From the IMG/VR virus record IMGVR_UViG_3300031555_002578: a DNA stretch of 64,000 nt; one strand, 5' to 3'. Under the pieces are notes generated by a model that did not search any database, was not told where the DNA came from, and saw only the letters and a list, made by a program, of their open reading frames with translations. Numbering within the stretch: position 1 is the first letter of the stretch; each line of letters begins with the position of its first letter. Both the position numbers and the translations under genes were made by a program. Shown in pieces: positions 7,425 through 57,984 of this stretch. This stretch comes from a virus (taxonomy: Duplodnaviria; Caudoviricetes).

Positions 7425-9698
7425 TTAAATATTATTTTCTAAATCATCCATTACCATATTATAATTATGAATCATTGTTTCTGAATCTGCCCCAAATTTC
7501 CATTTATTAATCCATGTTGGCAGATATTCAAGATATTCTTTCTCACTGATATCATCTTCATTATCCATTAAGTAAGCAACGCTACTTACAAGCACTGGAA
7601 TGTTTGATTCACTCAATACTTCTGGATTCTCAATAACTCTATCTGTATAATCAACTAACATATCACAAAGAACAGTAATATATTCCATTGTTTCTTCTTC
7701 AATGAATTCATCTTCAATATATTCCTGCATAGCATCATGACTAATATCTTCTTTTTTATTAATAAGCATCATCGTCTGAATTGCTACTTTAATTAAAGAG
7801 GTTTCATCCATATCAATGCTATTCATTAGTCTTGTTTTTGAAAACTTCTCAACATAATCGCACCAGTTTGAATCTAACACAAAAGTATCTTCGTCATCAC
7901 TATAACCGTCAAAATACATTTTCATTAAAGTTTCCAGATGTTTTACTTTTCTCTGTAATACACTGTTGTCTTTTGTGCTTTTATTTCCGATTGTATTATA
8001 AGTAAATCCGTCAATTTCTGTTTCGCTTAATTCTTCATTAAATGCTTTAATGAATTCTACAAATTGTTCATCAGTAATACCGTATTTACTACATTTATTA
8101 AATAATGCAAACCAAATCTTAGAATGAGTAGAATTAAATACCTTTTCTGTTTCCTCATTTGCAACTTTACTAATTCTTTCAACTAAAGAAATAAAGTTAG
8201 CGTAGGTATCTTCTCTCACTTCTTCTGCAAAATTTTTGCAAGTCACACCGAATTCTTTATTATATTTATCGGGGAAATATGTAAGCATAATACTATCAGT
8301 AACGATTCTACGCATTTCACCTTTCAACTTATTGTTGTTGGTGTAATTAGAACCGACAAAATCTGTTTTAAAAAACTGCATTTCATCAATAATTCTATCG
8401 ATATAAAATGCACAACTTTCATCCATCTCTGTCCAACCATTCTGAGATTTATTCATTGGTCTAGCCCTGTTGAATCTTGCGATATCATAGGCAATCTCAA
8501 TTCTGTCACAGTTCAGATTCATTAATACTGGAATAGGATAATCAAGAATACTTTCCTGTAACTCCTGTGGCAACTGAAAGAATTTTTTACCTCTTACATC
8601 AAAAGTTTTTTCTTCATAAACAGGATTTCCATATTCATCACAACAAATTTCTCCATCTTTTGTCTTTTTTGTAGTCTGATATACAATAAATGGACGCTGA
8701 ACTTTTTTGCTAATAGCAAAATCACCCGCACAGAAAGAATCAATATTATTGCATCTCTGTTTGCCATCAATTAGCCAACGATAAATTAATCCATCTCTGA
8801 TTTCCTCAGACACAATAATCTGAGTAAGTGCTTTGCCCCACATCATATCTACCATTAATTCACTTTTTTCAAAACTATTCCACATGCCAGAATATCTCTG
8901 TAATAAATGGTCATCTCTCCATTCTCTGTTTTTTAATTTTTTTCGCATAGAAGATACAGAGATATTAGTGTCTTTAGTTTTTTCTGATGTGTTCGGTAAA
9001 CTGCTCATGATATCATCTCCTTTTTTCGTACTAAATCCAGAACCATTTCTGCGTAAAATTTTTAATCGTTCATAGGATTTAATTTCCTTTAACTGTAGTT
9101 CATATTGTTTTCTTGTAATTCCTAAAGCATCTTGAATTTCTTGTCCAGTCATGTCTTCCATTTTCATTCTTAGAATTTTATTCTGCAAATCAGATAAACT
9201 AGATAGAAACTTTTCAATATGTTCATCTAGGAATTGATTATTTAATTCTGACGATTCAAAGAAATCTAAACCATCAGATTGATTACATAAAAAATCTCCG
9301 ATTGTAAAAGATTCATCTTCGCCAATCGGAGTTTCTATAGATACTGTTTGGAGATAGTGTACATCCCCATTGTCATCTACAATGCGAGAACTTCGTTTCT
9401 CTGCATTCCTGTACTTGATATTATCTATAATAGCAAGTTTGATTGCACGATAAATGTAACCTTCAAAATTACCTTTTGTTTTATCATATGTAGGTCTGTC
9501 AGCCCTTGGATTTTTAATGGAATCTAAAATGTCTGAAATAGTGTCACCTGCGATAGAGTAAAAATCATCTCTATCTTTTCCAGATATTCCACCATATTTT
9601 GCAATCATTTTGTCAACCATTCGTTGCAATTTGTAGGCATTATCTTTATATAATTCATATATATAATTTTGCATACCTACATCTATTACTCCATCCAT
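7425..9698 (-). CDS. Sigma-70-family factor fused in frame to a DUF262/ParB-like domain
   Basis: N-terminal region-2-like YDKTKGNFEGYIYRAI and region-4 HTH (LSDLQNKILRM..GQEIQDALGIT). C-terminal LQR..W, LIDGKQR and FN..PM motifs. Internal AAGGAG RBS before ATG at 9008. Confidence 0.75.
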   Translation of the reverse strand: MDGVIDVGMQNYIYELYKDNAYKLQRMVDKMIAKYGGISGKDRDDFYSIAGDTISDILDSIKNPRADRPTYDKTKGNFEGYIYRAIKLAIIDNIKYRNAEKRSSRIVDDNGDVHYLQTVSIETPIGEDESFTIGDFLCNQSDGLDFFESSELNNQFLDEHIEKFLSSLSDLQNKILRMKMEDMTGQEIQDALGITRKQYELQLKEIKSYERLKILRRNGSGFSTKKGDDIMSSLPNTSEKTKDTNISVSSMRKKLKNREWRDDHLLQRYSGMWNSFEKSELMVDMMWGKALTQIIVSEEIRDGLIYRWLIDGKQRCNNIDSFCAGDFAISKKVQRPFIVYQTTKKTKDGEICCDEYGNPVYEEKTFDVRGKKFFQLPQELQESILDYPIPVLMNLNCDRIEIAYDIARFNRARPMNKSQNGWTEMDESCAFYIDRIIDEMQFFKTDFVGSNYTNNNKLKGEMRRIVTDSIMLTYFPDKYNKEFGVTCKNFAEEVREDTYANFISLVERISKVANEETEKVFNSTHSKIWFALFNKCSKYGITDEQFVEFIKAFNEELSETEIDGFTYNTIGNKSTKDNSVLQRKVKHLETLMKMYFDGYSDDEDTFVLDSNWCDYVEKFSKTRLMNSIDMDETSLIKVAIQTMMLINKKEDISHDAMQEYIEDEFIEEETMEYITVLCDMLVDYTDRVIENPEVLSESNIPVLVSSVAYLMDNEDDISEKEYLEYLPTWINKWKFGADSETMIHNYNMVMDDLENNI

Positions 9699-9712: not shown

Positions 9713-10342
9713 TTATATGTTAAACAACTCTGCCTTTTGTCTTGGGTTATACTTTCTTTTATCTAAAGCAGAAATTTGTTTTTTAATATCCTCAGAAACA
9801 ACTTTTCCTACTTCTTTATCTAAGATAATATTTAATACAGTTAGTTCGTTTTTAATGGAACGTCTTTTAATCATAATCTTTTTAAGTCTTGCATATGCTT
9901 GGTATCCTTGATAAGCATTACAGTTCACAAGTTCAATATAGTGTTCTTCGTCAGATTTCTCTTGGTCTATAACACTTAATTGTTTTCTTAATTCTTCTCT
10001 ACGTTTACTTGCTTCATCAGCCAATCCATTTAGTTCTTCTAACTTGGTTAGCCATTGAGAAACATAATCCGTTTCCATTACCTTTTCAGTATTTTCATTT
10101 AACTGTTCATTAGTTAATGCTTTTACTTCTTTGGGGTCTGCAACAATTACTTGCTGTACTCTAAATATCTTTTTTAAAGGTTTTGGCAAACAGTTTTTAA
10201 GAATATTTTCTGCTTGAACTTTTGTGTAATGTTCTGCCATAGATTCCCCATATGAGGGAACATATTTTCCTTGATGATTACGAAATATAAAACGTTGACC
10301 ATCTGTTAGTATGTAATTTTTTATTTGCGTAATGATAACCAC
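9713..10342 (-). CDS. Hypothetical coiled-coil protein
   Basis: 209 aa; D.EHYIE..NAYQGY..RR.IKNE motif. Confidence 0.7.
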   Translation of the reverse strand: MVIITQIKNYILTDGQRFIFRNHQGKYVPSYGESMAEHYTKVQAENILKNCLPKPLKKIFRVQQVIVADPKEVKALTNEQLNENTEKVMETDYVSQWLTKLEELNGLADEASKRREELRKQLSVIDQEKSDEEHYIELVNCNAYQGYQAYARLKKIMIKRRSIKNELTVLNIILDKEVGKVVSEDIKKQISALDKRKYNPRQKAELFNI

Positions 10343-11878: not shown

Positions 11879-12339
11879 TACCCACCGTTTATCAGCCTTG
11901 CAGATGCTTACGGACAATATCATTACTCCAAACTGTAACTCAAGGATTTTGTAAAACGTTTTTCTTTATCGGGACTATAAGAAACCAACATCATCATAAA
12001 TTGAGTACATACTATATTCCAAATTAAATCATTAAACAATCTTTTAATAGAATATAAGTCCCTTCTTTGCACTTTTAACTTTATTATTTAGAACTGAACT
12101 TTGAGCATTGAACTTTAATTCTTTAAACCTTGAACATTGAACTTTACAGTGCATTAGAATCCGTTTCTATAACGGGAATATAATTTCATCTTGTAAAATA
12201 TGTAATATGTTTTTAAGAATAATGCCTTAACAGGGCAGTTCTTGATAATATCGGATTTTATTTATCTTTTTACATTGGTCTACTTTCCGATTAAAAGACA
12301 AATGAATGATAGTTAAAAGTTTCCGATAAACGATGGATA
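11879..12339 (-). ncRNA. About 460-nt structured RNA with heptamer repeats (ARRPOF-like, from recollection)
   Basis: 15-bp terminal helix TATCCATCGTTTATC/GATAAACGGTGGGTA with G-U pairs, GGGACT/AGTCCC and CCTTG/CAAGG helices, central AAAGTTC repeats; no ORF. Confidence 0.7.
12065..12145 (-). repeat. About 11 imperfect 7-nt tandem repeats (consensus AAAGTTC)
   Basis: AAAGTTC AATGTTC AAGGTTT AAAGAATT AAAGTTC AATGCTC AAAGTTC AGTTCT AAATAAT AAAGTTA AAAGTGC AAAG. Confidence 0.85.
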
Positions 12340-12363
12340 TTTTTATTTAGTTAGAAACACTTA

Positions 12364-13017
12364 TCAATAAGTAAATTCGATTTCTGTCAGAGAATTGCTC
12401 ACAGACAGAGCAGAATCAATTTCAACGAGGAAATCATTGATTTTTGTTTCCAGTTCTCTAATTTTATCAACGATTTTAATTTCATCAATAAAATCATAAG
12501 AATTCTGTTCAATGTATTCTTTTTTAGCCAGAGAAGCATTTTCGCCTTTCTTAGCATCTTCATTAGAACCATACATTTCTACAATGTATTTTTCTGCTTT
12601 TCTTTCCAGTTCATCACCATTTCTCATAGTGATAGTATTCTGTTCTTTATGATACTGTTTTTTCAGTTCTGCCAGAAGGTACTGGTCATACTCAACGCCA
12701 TGATTTTTCATCTCAATGGCTTCTGCAACAGTACATTCAATATCATTGATTTTTACCATTGTAACTGCATTGGACAGAACCAGTGCTTTTTTCATGGCAT
12801 TTCTTCTTTTGATTAGAGAAGTTGCTCTGTCATAATCACCTTGCATTTTTGCTCTGTAATCTGTCAGAGTAATGCCAGAAATCTTCATATTAGAATGTTT
12901 GTTTGCAATACAGTATTTACCTGTATCGATTGCATCAATGATTCTTTTATCCATTGTTTTCAGTTCCGCTAAACATTTGTGTACGGACATTCTTTCAGTT
13001 GTAGCCATAATTAACAT
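12364..13017 (-). CDS. Coiled-coil protein, DIP1984/DUF6847 (septicolysin-annotated)-like
   Basis: M(S)VHKCLAELK.MDKRI..LI.RR..MK.A...SNA.T.V....TVAEAI..EID.ALS.SN..T.IE. Probable start at 13008 after AGGAG. Confidence 0.75.
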   Translation of the reverse strand: MLIMATTERMSVHKCLAELKTMDKRIIDAIDTGKYCIANKHSNMKISGITLTDYRAKMQGDYDRATSLIKRRNAMKKALVLSNAVTMVKINDIECTVAEAIEMKNHGVEYDQYLLAELKKQYHKEQNTITMRNGDELERKAEKYIVEMYGSNEDAKKGENASLAKKEYIEQNSYDFIDEIKIVDKIRELETKINDFLVEIDSALSVSNSLTEIEFTY

Positions 13018-13051
13018 CTCCTTTTAAATTTTGATTTTTGAATTTTAATGA

Positions 13052-13126
13052 AAAATCGTACTGGGAATCGAACCCAGTGTTCCTGCTGTGAAAAGAGCAG
13101 AGCCTTTACCTCTTGGCTAACGATTA
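13052..13126 (-). tRNA. tRNA-Glu-like with 8-nt anticodon loop (CT-TTTC-AC)
   Basis: GCC-AAGAGGTAAA-GGC D-arm, CTGCT-CTTTTCAC-AGCAG anticodon arm, CTGGG-TTCGATT-CCCAG T-arm, 6-bp acceptor AATCGT/ACGATT. Confidence 0.7.
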
Positions 13127-14512: not shown

Positions 14513-14845
14513 TGGGGTGATAGTTTTACCAAGATAGTTACAGATTGCTACTCTCCTAACTATCCGTTACTCCAACTAACAAGGATGCACATTATATGTA
14601 TAACCCCACGCAGGACAGCATTTCCCTACTTCCACACTTTCGCAGTGGCATTGCGTCTAGCATCTGATAACTTTCAATCACTTTCAAACTACTTACGTTC
14701 TCCTTGGTTCGTTTGATTGTAATTACAAACATGGCAGTCAACATAACCATTACTAGATTAAAGCGTTATCCTTTCGGACGAGTGAACTACCCACTCCTAT
14801 GAACCTAGCCGTTAGTTCTTTCCTAACAGTCAGAGGATATACATT
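14513..14845 (-). ncRNA. GNRA-rich structured RNA candidate at the 5' end of the RNA island
   Basis: TCC-GAAA-GGA, CCAC..GAAA..GTGG, CTGTTAG/CTAACGG, GAGTG/CACTC, GATAGTTA/TAACTATC and TGGGGT/ACCCCA helices; no ORF. Confidence 0.5.
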
Positions 14846-15118: not shown

Positions 15119-15448
15119 TTATTCATCTATTGCTTCTTTTTGTGCAAAAGTAATACAGTGAATAAAATTCGGTTCTTTCAAAACATTCATAAGTTCCATT
15201 CTTCCAAAAAAGGAATGGTTTTCGTAATCAATGGATTTCGCTTTTTCAATCAGTTTATATCCATCAAACTTTTTCATCCATTCTGTATTCCCACTGGTAT
15301 GTGTTTCTACATTAATAATAGTTACACAAATATTATCAGAAGGGGATTCATCTATTAACCTTTTTGCTTCTTTTTTAGAAACATACTTGGTAACGACTGT
15401 ACGATTGTATTTTCTTTTGCTTTCTCTCATCGTAACACTTCCTTCCAA
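15119..15448 (-). CDS. Hypothetical protein coupled to the MazF-like gene
   Basis: 109-aa ORF overlapping the stop of 15427-15810. Confidence 0.65.
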   Translation of the reverse strand: MEGSVTMRESKRKYNRTVVTKYVSKKEAKRLIDESPSDNICVTIINVETHTSGNTEWMKKFDGYKLIEKAKSIDYENHSFFGRMELMNVLKEPNFIHCITFAQKEAIDE

Positions 15449-15810
15449 TTAATTTTTTCACCATAGAAGAACGATAAATAACATACTTTATTTACTTTAT
15501 TTTTCTGATTTGGGTTTGTAATTACTCCCAATTTTCTTACAACTTCACTTTTGCATATAGTAGTTAGTTGTTCACCAAGAAGCATCGAATAGTATTCTAG
15601 CCCATTTTCTGTCTCTACATCAAGACATTCATGTGTTGGTAAATATTCTTTTTTAATGACATGAGTTAGAGGAACTACTGTTACTACTTCTGCACTTGAA
15701 GTACCACGTTCATTACTTACAATTATACATGGTCTTCTTTTGCTTTGCACAGAACCAGTGGCATTTCTATTTTCAACTTCTATTACATCGTATCTATGAA
15801 ACTCCATCAT
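15427..15810 (-). CDS. PemK/MazF-family endoribonuclease
   Basis: RYDVIEV..GSVQSKRRPCIIVSNE..VVPLT..LPTH..EQLTTI motifs. Confidence 0.85.
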   Translation of the reverse strand: MMEFHRYDVIEVENRNATGSVQSKRRPCIIVSNERGTSSAEVVTVVPLTHVIKKEYLPTHECLDVETENGLEYYSMLLGEQLTTICKSEVVRKLGVITNPNQKNKVNKVCYLSFFYGEKINWKEVLR

Positions 15811-22619: not shown

Positions 22620-24493
22620 GTGCGTTCACCTACTTTTATCCTTCTATTCGATTTTCAACTAAAAAAGACACCTAATCCAGTGTCTTAATTCCATCCATCT
22701 TTACTCCAGAAAATACTTCCTGTATTATTATATCTCAATTCAATTCCTCTGTCAGAAAAATAACTTTCTAATACTTTATAAAAACTTTCATTTACATTGA
22801 TAATTGAACTTTTAATAAATAAATCGTTAGATGGTACAATTTCACAACTCGGATTCTTTTCTCTTGCGTTAATATGTATTTTAAAACTACAATTCAAATT
22901 CTTTAATGTTTGGTTAAATTCTTCTACCATTGATTCTGTTATCTTCACTTATACCACTTCCAATCAACTTTTTCTATGTGTTTCACAATATTCAGAAATT
23001 GCAATACCACATCTGATTTGTGCATTTGACAGTGCTTGTTTTGCTTTTTTAACATCGTCTTCTAATCTGTATAGGTCATACTTTAACATAAAATAATCTT
23101 CAATATATGTACTACCAAACAAAGAATACATATATTCTAAATATCGTTCCATTGCATCTGCTTTCAAATCATTGCATCTATGCCATTTATGTAATGAATA
23201 ATTGGAAAAAGCAAATTCAAAATTTTTTCCATAAACCTCAATCAACTCTGGTGTTGACAAAATCATTTCTACATCTGATTTATTAAAACATAAATCAACA
23301 ATATGTAAAATCTGTTCCACTGTCAATTTCCTAATATATTTATTCCAAAAGTTTTCTGGTATATCTTTATAGCCACTATATTCCATTTAATCACCTTTTT
23401 CATTTTCCAACTTAGCAATAAATCCTTCTAATGTAGACAACGCAGAAATATAACCAGTATAATAATCTGTATTCGTACTACTTTGATTCTTTTTTAATTT
23501 TCCAATTTCTTTTTTTAATTCCATTGCAAACTTTTTGATTTCTTCATCTACAATAGCAGAAATTGCAAAATCTAAACTCTTATTGTTCTCCATAAATCTT
23601 CCCATTATATATCACTTCCACTCTATACTTATTGATTTGTCTTCTAAAATAATCAATTATATCCTGCTCTGTGCAAAATTCCAAAGGAAATGAGAACCAA
23701 AACCCATTCCATTGATTAGTCGTTCTCTGCATACCATCTACACAATTAACTCTCTTTCGGTATCCATTATCCTTCTCAATAAAATATGCCACATCATATT
23801 TATCCAACTTCATATAATCACTTTCTTTCTAATACTACAGTATTACTTATTATAATTTTTTATCCAATCAATAAAAATCCATTCTCCAAACTCCACTTAG
23901 TAGCCTGTTTCGTATATTCCATCAAATATTTATCCAGTGCAGGATAACCATTCTCAGATTCAATAGCATCAATGTACTTCTCTACACCATCAAAAATATA
24001 CATTACATAATAATCCGCATCTTCTCTATCTTCAAAATTTGTTGTATATATAGTAGGGTCTACTACCGTATTATTTTCATCTAAGATAAAACAATGTCTT
24101 GCAAGTAAATTATGAATTGAAGAAATATAACCATATGCAATTTTCCACTTACCACTTTTCACATTTTCCATGTGATTACATACTGCACGAAATACATTGA
24201 TATAACATTCCTTCATTTGATAAGCATTTTTGTCTTTATTATAAACATATTTACTTGCTTCTGCATTAAGTTTATATTTCTCCATCATAATTATTTCTCC
24301 TTATTTACCCACATTTCAAACATCAGAAGTCCTTTTGTGTCTGTTCTTACTCGTACACATCTAATATTTGTGTATCCACATTTCCTTGCTCTTTCAAATG
24401 CAGTATCAATAACAGTTTCTTTATTCTTTTCTTCTGCATAAAAGGTATCAAACAATCTAAGACCTTCTGCGATAAATCTTTCATATTGTTTCA

Positions 24494-38745: not shown

Positions 38746-39195
38746 TCAATCCTTTCTGTATCTATCTCGTCTATCCAGACACTCCTGCAACCTTACTTCT
38801 TTACCTTTACGCATTGTATTATCACCTTTTTGGATTCTTGTATTTTTTCCTGCTTCAATTAACTGCTTATCCATACCATTTTTATAGGCTAAATCCTTCA
38901 TCATTTTATGGTATGTTTGAGAAGTAGTCCTTGCATTTGCACACAAACCAAACTTCTTCTTATACTGTTCCATACTCATTTTATGTGATTCTTTTACATG
39001 ACTACCAAGCCTTTTATATGCTCTGCCACAAATATGACATACAACATATCCTCTTTCGTCTGTTGCAATTCTGCCCTTCTTAGGCAATGGATTGTCTGTA
39101 CCCCCATCACGATAATATTTAAAACAACCTTGACACATTCCTTTGTATCTCTTATCGTGAATGGTGAGTTCTTTACCACATTTACTGCAATACAT
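38746..39195 (-). CDS. Zinc-finger protein with Ros/MucR-like domain
   Basis: CSKC..CQGC and VCHICGRAYKRLGSHV..HKMS.EQYKKKFGL. Confidence 0.7.
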   Translation of the reverse strand: MYCSKCGKELTIHDKRYKGMCQGCFKYYRDGGTDNPLPKKGRIATDERGYVVCHICGRAYKRLGSHVKESHKMSMEQYKKKFGLCANARTTSQTYHKMMKDLAYKNGMDKQLIEAGKNTRIQKGDNTMRKGKEVRLQECLDRRDRYRKD

Positions 39196-39652
39196 TACAT
39201 CACCTCAATATCTATATAAACCTCTACTGTCCCTGTCTGCATCTACAATAGATACAATTCTTCTCATTGTTTCCATTGCACTATATTTACCAAAACAATA
39301 TCTGCCATAAATATTGTTGATTTCTCTTTTTGTTTCTTTTGTTAAGTCTGCTTTCATCATATCATTCGCAAATTCTTTCACATATCTCTTATTCATTCTT
39401 TCACCTCATTATACTCTGCCAATCTGTTTTTCTTTTCTACTATTACTTCTATACTTTGGTTCTGCTTCACTCAAACATCTATCACAATAATATCTCTGTC
39501 CACAATAGTCTACAATGTTCGCACAATCATGGAATTTATAATACACCTCTTTGATTCCATGAGTATATCTTCCATTGGGGATTGCCCATCCGATAATTTT
39601 ATTGCACTCAATACATCTAATTGCTTTACTACCTACCTTCATATATGACACC

Positions 39653-39958
39653 TCAATCCAATACATCAATATAAAATCTAAGTTCTGCACCTTTCAGATT
39701 ATCGTATGCCCATTCATGTGTTGTTCTCCACAATTCATCATACAGTTCTGTATATTTATCATTTCCCTTCTCATAATGTTCCCAAATCTTGTGATTCAGT
39801 ACCATTACCAGTTCCGTCAGATATTTATAATCAGATTTCCATTCATTGAAAGCACGATTATAAATGTCTTTAATTGCATCTACCCCAAACAAATCTGCAA
39901 TAGTAAAGTCCTGCCAAAATGTTGTTGTTACTCTTTCACCTTCATAATACATTCCCAT
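39653..39958 (-). CDS. Conserved phage hypothetical protein
   Basis: TTFWQDFTIAD.FG..YLTELVMVLNHKIW; own promoter and RBS. Confidence 0.7.
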   Translation of the reverse strand: MGMYYEGERVTTTFWQDFTIADLFGVDAIKDIYNRAFNEWKSDYKYLTELVMVLNHKIWEHYEKGNDKYTELYDELWRTTHEWAYDNLKGAELRFYIDVLD

Positions 39959-56864: not shown

Positions 56865-57984
56865 AGTTTTACTTCCTTCCTTCTGTGTCCTTGTTTTTAG
56901 TTTCTATATACATACTATCACAACGAAAATGCTGTGTCAATATGTTTTTTTCAAATTTCCATCGGAAACTTGTAAAAGCCTACAAAAACCATCTGCTTTT
57001 ATAGGCTTTAGCAATCATCCGATTTATTCCCAAAACAGAATACAGTCTTTTTCTGCATCCATCACATCATCAGTTCTGATAATGCGTTCTAAATCAGATA
57101 AATAGATTTCAAGGAAAGTACCATAATCACTTTCCATTCCTAAGTAAGTGTCATGTTTTTCCTGTAAATCATCTGTATATTTAACAGTGTTCCATGCCCT
57201 TTTAACTGTGAAATTGAAAAGTCTAGGCAATGGACTAGATTTAGACACTACAAAAAAAGAATATCTTTTCCCTGTCATTTCATGTGGTACTTCCTCTGTT
57301 GTATCATCATCATACATTCCTTCATAATAATCATTATCAACTGGATATGTTTCCCAAAATCCATCATCCATACAAATCCCACCAAAACCCTCTGGATAGC
57401 GTTCTGTCAAGTCTGGAATATAAGTCATGATTCATTCCCCTTCCTCTGTGCATTTGATTATGTCAACTATGATTTACTCTGATAGTAAATCGACAAAAGG
57501 GAACAAGCGTTTCCCTGTTCCCCTTTAGCAATTCGCCTATCTGTTATGGTCTGATAATTAAATTTGTATAAATTGCATAAAAATCAATATTTTCTGTAAC
57601 TTCAAAAGTTTCTTTTCCACCATATTCATCGTATGTTACAATATAATTTTTCCCATTTTCATGATAGATTACAATTCTGCATCCGTTGAACATTGTCTTG
57701 TCAAACATCCAGTTTTTTTCTGGTTCTTTCAGCATTTTTTCTACTGCATTTTCAATAGCAATTCTCCATTTTTTCGCTAATTGCCATTCTTTGCGAAATT
57801 CATTGATTCTTTTTTCCTCTGCTATATCTTTTTTTGTTTTTTTCTGTCTGCCTAACCAATAAAGTTCACTACAAGTTCCCATAATCATTCCCCTTCCATT
57901 TTTTTGTTCATGCTCTGCGGACTTGTGACCGCCATCGGTAGCATTAAAGCGGGACTTTTTGTGTCCCACTCCACTCTGCTTTTA

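Follow-up and report, generated by a model that had tools for sequence, protein, structure and literature searches.

Within a stretch of 64,000 nucleotides (nt) of Caudoviricetes DNA (IMG/VR record IMGVR_UViG_3300031555_002578; this whole stretch is termed the window in the following), we identified a compact module on the minus strand. It consists of a gene for a protein of 214 amino acids (aa), here called the partner protein, and of a structured RNA of 461 nt, whose 5' end lies 24 nt past the stop codon of the gene and which carries a track of 7-nt repeats. The same heptamers precede the gene itself and run into its Shine-Dalgarno (SD) sequence. The RNA is real, and the occurrence of gene and RNA in related phages supports a fixed module. 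That the two form a protein-RNA particle which, in addition, would regulate its own production is a reading suggested by sequence comparison, and we give it even chances. The window is part of a 97-kb contig, and the whole-contig heptamer scans described below cover those 97 kb. The elements of the module and its immediate upstream neighbor are:

13053-13125, minus strand: tRNA-like gene with an 8-nt anticodon loop (ARAGORN; Rfam tRNA, 37.2 bits)
13019-13049, minus strand: leader heptamer run AUUAAAA UUCAAAA AUCAAAA UUUAAAA, leading into the SD sequence (sequence and matrix)
12364-13008, minus strand: protein gene, 214 aa; candidate heptamer-binding partner
11879-12339, minus strand: whole structured RNA, 461 nt, closed by helix P1 (helix search and alignment)
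12323-12339, minus strand: 5' arm of P1, pairing with 11879-11895
12250-12337, minus strand: 5' domain, the match to RAGATH-27 (Rfam RF03100)
12150-12249, minus strand: variable region with lineage-specific hairpins, unalignable across relatives
12065-12149, minus strand: heptamer track, i.e. the anchor CUGUAAAG followed by N-U-Y-A-A-R-G units (matrix and alignment)
11971-12062, minus strand: optional hairpin within the track, GGGACU (12062-12057) pairing with AGUCCC (11976-11971)
11957-11970, minus strand: last two heptamers, GAUAAAG AAAAACG
11896-11956, minus strand: conserved 3' domain, i.e. UUUUACAAAAUCC followed by helix P2 around a small covarying stem
11879-11895, minus strand: 3' arm of P1, with an invariant GGCUG just before it (alignment)

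The evidence for the RNA structure comes from an alignment of 24 diverse sequences, for which a consensus fold was computed with RNAalifold. Four helices were recovered: the closing helix P1, stem S1 of a pseudoknot, P2, and a stem of 3 base pairs (bp) inside P2. In these helices, 95.3% of the pairs are standard ones, compared to 73.1% after shuffling of columns; none of 500 shuffles reached the observed value. Sliding the 3' partners by one to three columns lowered the pairing to 34-45%. Compensatory two-sided changes were detected for 27 of the 32 pairs (P1, 13/16; S1, 7/8; P2, 4/5, with 100% of the P2 cells paired). P1 joins positions 12339-12323 with 11895-11879 and comprises 17 bp including G-U pairs. 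In all representatives, the segment 5' of a conserved CGAAAAC pairs with a segment located 320-465 nt downstream, after the invariant GGCUG; the sequences of the two arms vary by lineage, whereas their complementarity is kept. Single-sequence folds of minimum free energy, determined for 16 RNAs, paired both termini over most of the length of P1. Within P1, one pair is G-U in 20 and another in all 24 sequences. As these invariant pairs would be A-C on the opposite strand, the structure belongs to the minus-strand RNA. The 3' end of the RNA is marked in other phages: an intrinsic terminator directly follows P1 in Deep Blue, phiPsa374, and VPT02, and the next tRNA starts a few to some tens of nt past P1 in Hena1, KPP-1, L001, L030, and L037. 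The original prediction, made from the DNA sequence of the window, had placed an RNA of about 460 nt, closed by a 15-bp helix, 25 nt past the gene; the RNA following the gene was correctly seen, and only the details given above (461 nt, 17 bp, 24 nt) differ.

Between the arms of P1, the 5' domain contains a conserved unpaired stretch, CG(A/G)AAACYUUAAC (12322-12312), and an H-type pseudoknot, in which stem S1 links 12304-12297 to 12280-12273 and stem S2 links 12291-12286 to 12255-12250. In the 3' domain, the 5 bp of P2 are formed by CCUUG (11945-11941) and CAAGG (11900-11896), which enclose the 3-bp stem. The optional hairpin within the track has an equivalent in loci L039, L062, L063, L075, and L078, where a GAGGGC...GCCC insert is found. 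One further candidate, a pairing of the conserved 5' CGAAAACUUUAAAC with the 3' AAAGUUUUA, was dropped, as it is lost (by eye) in the GC-richer loci L037, L060, and L072.

The 5' domain has a counterpart in Rfam. Positions 12337-12250 gave a match with RAGATH-27 (RF03100) of 72.5 bits (E-value 4.8e-9), which spans the full model (1-86) and does not reach the gathering score of 76.1; at the equivalent position, 7 of 20 related loci scored above this cut-off (78.5-97.4 bits). Because of the full-model alignment and these seven loci, we regard the window copy as a RAGATH-27 homologue just under the cut-off. The first 88 nt or so of the window RNA align end to end with the 86-position model, and the conserved 5' sequence is nearly identical; the annotated hairpin is present with one non-canonical closing pair. 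In Rfam, RAGATH-27 is an orphan small RNA of 86 positions with one hairpin, whereas here it constitutes the 5' domain of an RNA of 320-465 nt. The hairpin annotated by Rfam is S2, while S1 pairs the RAGATH-27 5' flank with the loop of that hairpin; thus the flank, which is "unstructured" in the catalogue, here forms an arm of P1 and a stem of the pseudoknot. Nothing in the catalogue corresponds to the heptamer track or the 3' domain, nor to the partner protein or the repeats of the leader. RAGATH-27 may originate from the survey of candidate RNAs by Weinberg et al. (2017; PMC5737381), although the word RAGATH is absent from its main text.

At gathering thresholds, Rfam reported only tRNAs in the vicinity of the module. 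The original prediction had likened the RNA layout to the ARRPOF motif. This comparison was abandoned: ARRPOF gave no match at E ≤ 10 between positions 10300 and 15000 (both strands, permissive filters) and none at the gathering score in the entire window, and nothing that can be tested is common to both beyond their being repeat-containing RNAs. The module was not described in the literature searched for RAGATH motifs including RAGATH-27, for non-coding RNAs of T5, for phage RNAs with heptamer repeats, and for DIP1984, DUF6847, septicolysin, or 3KDQ.

In order to describe the repeats, a position matrix was deduced from 91 heptamers of 13 loci other than the window. The most constant positions are A4 (98%), A5 (96%), and Y3 (94%), followed by A/G at position 6 (90%), G/A at position 7 (90%), and U2 (79%). 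The window RNA possesses about 13 matrix units; about 12 N-U-Y-A-A-R-G heptamers are located at 12149-12065 and at 11970-11957, and one-base register slips occur in the window lineage. This corroborates the AAAGTTC-type repeats noticed initially, whose number was then given as about 11 and is now about 12-13. In most lineages, the invariant CUGUAAAG is followed by seven (sometimes eight) in-register units, a short U-rich spacer, and four to five more units, the last of which merges into the conserved UUUUAYAAAAUCC of the 3' domain. The repeats had been described as single-stranded. The consensus fold leaves the track unpaired, in agreement with this description, while single-sequence folding is not decisive; we infer a single-stranded state.

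The longest open reading frame (ORF) of the partner gene is 13017-12364 (minus strand). Its SD sequence AAAGGAG (13024-13018, minus strand) was read directly from the sequence. The ATG at 13017 abuts the SD sequence, whereas the ATG at 13008 is located 9 nt past it and agrees with the N-termini of all homologues in the alignment. For these reasons, the start was assigned to 13008 (gene 13008-12364, 214 aa); the ORF extent proposed at the outset (12364-13017) holds, and its start codon was moved from 13017 to 13008. Direct reading also confirmed that the leader contains AAAATTC AAAAATC AAAATTT AAAAGGA(G) at 13046-13019. This heptamer run is the proposed operator for an autogenous translational repression.

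To assess the leader repeats, we applied the above matrix to the 50 nt that precede each start codon and took the highest score attained by three consecutive heptamers in phase. The score of the window leader is 18.9, and 28 of 41 distinct homologous leaders reached at least 9.6. None of 174 control leaders, which belong to other genes of the same loci and of the window and likewise carry an SD sequence, attained this value; their maximum was 8.6 and their 99th percentile 4.0. Among leaders scoring above 9, the last heptamer overlaps the SD sequence by 1-4 nt, or the SD sequence lies inside the run, in 28 of 29 cases. The context further upstream differs wholly between lineages and can be a tRNA, a promoter, or a coding region. 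Where sigma-70-type promoters were recognizable by eye (L039-41, L062-66, phiPsa374), the heptamers are downstream of the -10 box, i.e. in the transcribed leader. When the 97-kb contig was scanned, the two highest-scoring heptamer runs were located in the track of the RNA (22.8) and in the leader of the gene itself (18.9). All other runs scored 10-12, which is chance level, and tracks were found on the transcribed strand only. Two weak runs in window positions 22795-22815 (minus strand, 12.1) and in contig G000:C1 27260-27280 (minus strand, 10.1), the latter fused with an SD-like GGAG, are within chance expectation and could be minor extra sites.

The leader heptamer run is separated by 3 nt from the upstream tRNA-like gene (13053-13125) if its start according to the matrix (13049) is considered, and by 6 nt if the register read earlier (13046) is used. 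The loop of this tRNA-like gene, CUUUUCAC, is flanked by perfect 5-bp stems, and ARAGORN calls a 4-base anticodon, tttc. Processing of the tRNA probably sets the 5' end of the leader. The tRNA-like gene itself could be a +1 frameshift suppressor or a mere processing signal upstream of the heptamer leader.

The association of gene and RNA was determined from both sides. When the gene served as an anchor, all 80 viral loci carried the RNA, among them L064, which has a different start codon, and L076 and L079, which contain a small inserted ORF. For the reverse, gene-blind search, viral contigs were scanned with a pattern deduced from the 3' domain of the RNA alone. Hits were kept if a true heptamer track was present and if the DNA upstream extended for 1.4 kb or more. 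The gene was located directly upstream of 46 out of 48 RNAs found in this way. The two exceptions (L083, L168) are identical to each other and represent a single lineage, whose RNA is truncated. Here, only the 3' half of the RNA survives, with P2, the 3' arm of P1, and a portion of the track; it directly follows an ORF of 471 aa with a Vsr/DUF559-like endonuclease motif (by eye). The 3.5 kb upstream contain neither a partner gene nor the 5' arm of P1. Apparently, mobile endonuclease genes have disrupted the module in this lineage, the 5' half of the RNA and the gene having been replaced by endonuclease-like ORFs. The original prediction depended on homologous genes sharing the RNA and the heptamers of the untranslated leader. 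The linkage of gene and RNA turned out to be near-obligate in both directions, and the heptamers are kept in most leaders (28/41). These findings support the conclusion that gene and RNA are a fixed module. The present analysis adds a test, with controls, of the leader repeats and of how they overlap the SD sequence, a gene-blind search, and a whole-contig scan, which singled out the leader as the only strong extra site.

The protein family comprises more than 1,700 proteins after clustering at 90% and about 2,000 representative clusters at 50%. A total of 719 phage records encode the partner protein. They comprise T5-like phages that infect Escherichia and Salmonella, such as Bf23 with its gene at 39086-39724 of OR083247.1, as well as Bacillus Bastillevirinae, Pseudomonas Otagovirus, and phages of Vibrio, Klebsiella, Erwinia, Aeromonas, and Clostridium. 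We inspected ten of these records. In each case, 340-1230 nt without annotation come after the gene, and a heptamer track is found in this gap (10/10). A P1 helix of 16-21 bp was found automatically in Bf23, D-1873, phiCD211, VPT02, Hena1, and KPP-1. The automatic procedure chose wrong helices in Deep Blue, phiPsa374, Salmonella phage 7-11, and Aeromonas phage 4_4572; P1 was read by eye in the first three, and the latter is clear for P2 and the track only. An Rfam scan of five gaps from distant phages gave no match. UYA(A/G)R is the core of the repeat in all these phages, whether their hosts are Enterobacteria, Pseudomonas, Vibrio, Aeromonas, Bacillus, or Clostridia. We also considered that the motif might change with the divergence of the protein within one host, and compared Salmonella phage 7-11 with T5-like phages; the 7-11 track is a degenerate form of the same core and shows no clear co-variation. 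Leaders of Deep Blue, Bf23, KPP-1, and phiPsa374 scored 6.8-10.4. The leaders of Deep Blue (L193), Bf23 (L196), Hena1 (L199), and KPP-1 (L200) share an AAAYUUCAUR just before the SD sequence, which may be the form of the leader element outside the gut-phage group.

The module is usually situated inside or at the edge of a tRNA cluster; in Deep Blue, for instance, it follows 19 tRNAs. In L085 and L089, which belong to a sub-family whose partner protein is 33-39% identical to that of the window, the variable region contains what seems, by eye, to be a complete tRNA-shaped insert; it lies past the pseudoknot and ahead of the track, some 250-330 nt downstream of the gene.

The partner protein is less easily classified. 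It matches PHROG 1491 with an E-value of 3.6e-48. The label "tail fiber protein" of this group stems from annotation only and finds no support in fold or gene position: the gene sits among tRNA or early-region genes, and the 214-aa protein was modeled as a helical bundle. Pfam yielded no family up to an E-value of 1, and NCBIfam none that is relevant; searches of Pfam, NCBIfam, PADLOC, and the PDB sequences with the single protein and with a profile gave nothing usable. The AlphaFold2 model, which is based on an alignment of 28 sequences, is a confident one (pLDDT 87). Long helices form a bundle, and four short strands are contributed by the N-terminus, the C-terminus, and a hairpin at residues 84-93. 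A comparison with BFVD by means of Foldseek retrieved uncharacterized phage proteins only. The best solved fold is 3kdq from Corynebacterium diphtheriae, a protein of no known function (Foldseek E-value 0.015). VIA-align superimposed 151 of 152 residues with a root-mean-square deviation of 7.1 Å, 13% identity, and a Z-score of 9.9 (next row, 6.9), where for helical bundles values below about 13 may mean only a common helical arrangement; the window protein is about 60 residues longer.

The original prediction had termed the protein DIP1984/DUF6847-like. The nearest Atlas clusters bearing a Pfam family carry DUF6847, and one of these has TM-scores of 0.56/0.66; DUF6847 (PF20935) itself appeared in 1 of 10 distant homologues, at 14.6 bits and thus below the cut-off of 27. 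Taken together with 3kdq, a remote resemblance of fold may be retained, but not membership in the family, as no profile matched at its cut-off. The likeness brings no function with it. Among 54 representatives with 32-49% identity, L13, N80, and N205 are invariant, and H10, K17, R22, G45, and two S-N-A-x-T motifs (residues 79-83 and 204-208) are conserved to at least 90%. It is a speculation that these residues include those reading the bases.

Based on these findings, we propose the following mechanism. The short leader, the gene of the 214-aa protein, and the 461-nt RNA would be parts of one transcript within a tRNA cluster; in the window, the gap between gene and RNA contains no promoter or terminator signal above chance, and co-transcription is the simplest reading. 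The RNA, clamped by P1 and furnished with the 5' pseudoknot and P2, would display about 12 evenly spaced heptamers, on which copies of the protein would bind side by side, one per heptamer, giving rise to a particle of defined stoichiometry with around a dozen subunits. Once the track is filled, surplus protein would bind to the three or four heptamers of the leader and block translation. We lean towards the co-encoded protein being the heptamer binder, as judged from the sequences compared. This is the most economical assumption because of the constant pairing of gene and RNA, the strict 7-nt track as the largest unpaired feature conserved in the RNA, the presence of the same words over the gene's own SD sequence, and the occurrence in hosts with differing regulators; given this diversity of hosts, the co-encoded protein is the simplest common partner. 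For the feedback loop on translation, we see the arguments as evenly balanced.

There are precedents for both parts of this scheme. TRAP reads 11 triplets in the trp leader, and HutP, in the hut leader of Bacillus subtilis, recognizes NAG triplets that are 4 nt apart and thus have a period of 7 nt. In both systems, evenly spaced short RNA words are read by identical subunits, just as a 7-nt register over seven to eight units may be read here; this analogy is a functional one only. TRAP and HutP are beta-rich rings that control other genes by attenuation, whereas the window protein is predicted to be a helical bundle and has no Pfam match to either; the core is UYAA and not the AG of HutP and TRAP, and the repeats belong to a large folded RNA that stands by itself and to the leader of the protein's own gene. 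With respect to regulation, ribosomal proteins, gp32 and RegA of phage T4, and CsrA/CsrB illustrate how a copy of the binding site over the own SD sequence lets surplus protein stop its own synthesis, the primary target being a lattice or an RNA with many sites. The gp32 operator is a pseudoknot plus an unstructured A/U-rich stretch, and each gp32 monomer covers about 7 nt. By analogy, the logic proposed here would match the feedback of ribosomal proteins, T4 gp32, and CsrA. None of these proteins is homologous to the window protein; moreover, the target RNA and the gene are here apparently on one transcript, and the mechanism is one that we infer.

Several observations weigh against this proposal. 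The partner protein matches no known RNA-binding family, and the nearest solved fold, 3kdq, has no known function. Folding of single sequences does not show that the track is unpaired, as the mean pairing probability amounts to about 0.5-0.6 within it and to about 0.6 elsewhere. In simulated AT-rich genomes of 97 kb, a run of three heptamers scoring at least 18 arose about 0.12 times per genome; it is therefore its position and its recurrence in homologues, and not the score alone, which make the leader run significant. In about a third of the gut-phage leaders and in 5 of the 10 distant phages (D-1873, phiCD211, VPT02, 7-11, 4_4572), the leader heptamers are absent or weak, which means that the feedback in its present form cannot be universal. 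Finally, one might expect the leader sites to be weaker than those of the track. This was not the case, the mean matrix score being 4.7 for the leader and 3.2 for the track, with a selection bias favoring the leader; a simple hierarchy of affinities is consequently not evident.

As an alternative, the track could sequester, as a sponge or decoy, some conserved factor of the host (e.g. the ribosome/S1, an RNA chaperone, an RNase, or a tRNA-handling enzyme), with the protein doing something else, e.g. folding, protecting, or processing the RNA; the leader heptamers would then put the gene under the same host factor. This explanation, which we consider rather unlikely, would account for the placement of the module in tRNA clusters and for the tRNA-like inserts in some variable regions, and it would not need a recognizable RNA-binding domain in the protein. 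According to our own, weak observation, UUCAAAG also loosely resembles the 7-nt T-loop of tRNAs. However, the core UYA(A/G)R is constant although the RNA-binding regulators of the hosts differ, and the partner that is constant is the co-encoded protein; in addition, the only strong extra site in the phage is the gene's own leader, which fits self-regulation better. The more specific idea that the heptamer mimics a T-loop was rejected, as the invariant C56 is not mirrored, 44% of the units having a U at position 3.

Less probable still is a purely cis-acting role, in which the RNA is a 3' untranslated or processing element of the gene's mRNA or of the tRNA-cluster transcript, has no dedicated partner, and carries repeats that are degenerate spacers or RNase sites. 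The transcript layout would be compatible with such a role, as no promoter or terminator signal above chance separates gene and RNA and as the RNA ends where a terminator or a tRNA begins. A clamp helix would protect a 3' end. Yet an RNA of 320-460 nt with a covarying pseudoknot, P1, and P2 exceeds the needs of a stabilizer, and the same is true for a 7-nt register kept over seven to eight units after the invariant CUGUAAAG; the heptamers at the SD sequence of the gene would be left unexplained.

It is very improbable that the repeats act at the level of DNA, as a 7-bp operator, an iteron, or a centromere-like array, with the leader as a transcriptional operator. The omega repressor of plasmid pSM19035 binds arrays of heptads, and direct 7-bp repeats upstream of a gene and in a separate array are also found here. 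The array, however, is embedded in covarying helices, whose invariant G-U pairs are A-C mismatches on the other strand; all units have one orientation, tracks occur on the transcribed strand only, the leader copies are downstream of recognizable -10 boxes and fused with the SD sequence, and the protein matches no DNA-binding family. A type III toxin-antitoxin-like pair, in which the repeat RNA neutralizes a toxic protein and which had been among the analogies drawn originally, is hardly credible, even though a repeat RNA adjoins a protein gene and a MazF-like gene 2.4 kb away attests to toxin-type genes in the island: type III antitoxin repeats are about 36 nt long and lie upstream of an endoribonuclease toxin gene, whereas the units found here are 7 nt long and lie downstream of the gene in a large folded RNA, PADLOC gave no match, and the model matches no nuclease above the generic background of helical bundles.

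In the wider neighborhood, the MazF-like growth-inhibitor gene just mentioned (15427-15810, minus strand; PHROG 1936, E-value 2.2e-18) is located at the edge of the tRNA/RNA island and is followed by an overlapping ORF of 109 aa (15119-15448). A weak match with RAGATH-36 at 14629-14799 (minus strand; 30.5 bits versus a gathering score of 70, E-value 0.002) may be a divergent copy of this motif; in L060 and L072, full-scoring RAGATH-36 copies precede the homologous gene by about 1-1.5 kb. Further orphan Rfam motifs (drum, skipping-rope, RAGATH-18, FuFi-1) occur in the same phage tRNA islands, at L195 3904-4011, L062 24-134, L039 4574-4653, L067 1912-1985, and L038 2155-2327. RAGATH motifs were found near twister and hammerhead ribozymes, and a type-P5 twister ribozyme in the window (57917-57980, minus strand; 55.6 bits versus a gathering score of 37.6) fits this origin. 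The N-terminal 200 or so residues of a 757-aa protein (7425-9698, minus strand) weakly match a phage sigma-factor PHROG (E-value 1.7e-4). In the C. difficile phage phiCD211, genes for a sigma factor and for HU lie just upstream of its copy of the module.

Seen as a whole, the module may represent a widespread and hitherto undescribed class of ribonucleoproteins, in which a protein of about 210 residues is polymerized, one copy per heptamer, on a clamped and pseudoknotted RNA from its own transcript and limits itself via the heptamers at its SD sequence; our confidence in this generalization falls slightly short of even. If true, a new kind of viral protein-RNA particle would be present in hundreds of sequenced phages, the relatives of T5 included, and in thousands of metagenomic ones. 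It would have been overlooked because the RNA lies in gaps that appear to be empty. Of this RNA, only the first 86 bases have been catalogued so far, as the orphan motif RAGATH-27, which can now be linked to the structure of a full-length RNA, to a candidate partner, and to a proposed regulatory loop that is open to testing. As Bf23 and T5 grow on laboratory E. coli, the question is directly testable. The fixed 7-nt register and the near-constant layout of 7-8 plus 4-5 units promise a defined architecture for cryo-electron microscopy, and both may offer a simple programmable code of protein-RNA recognition. The module is shared by phages of gut Clostridia and by those of the T5-like, Bacillus, Pseudomonas, and Vibrio groups, and it mostly lies within or beside tRNA clusters, which suggests a role in translation or tRNA biology during infection; the association with these clusters and the tRNA-like inserts point towards translation or the handling of tRNAs. 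This steady association may thus bear on the question of why large phages keep such clusters.

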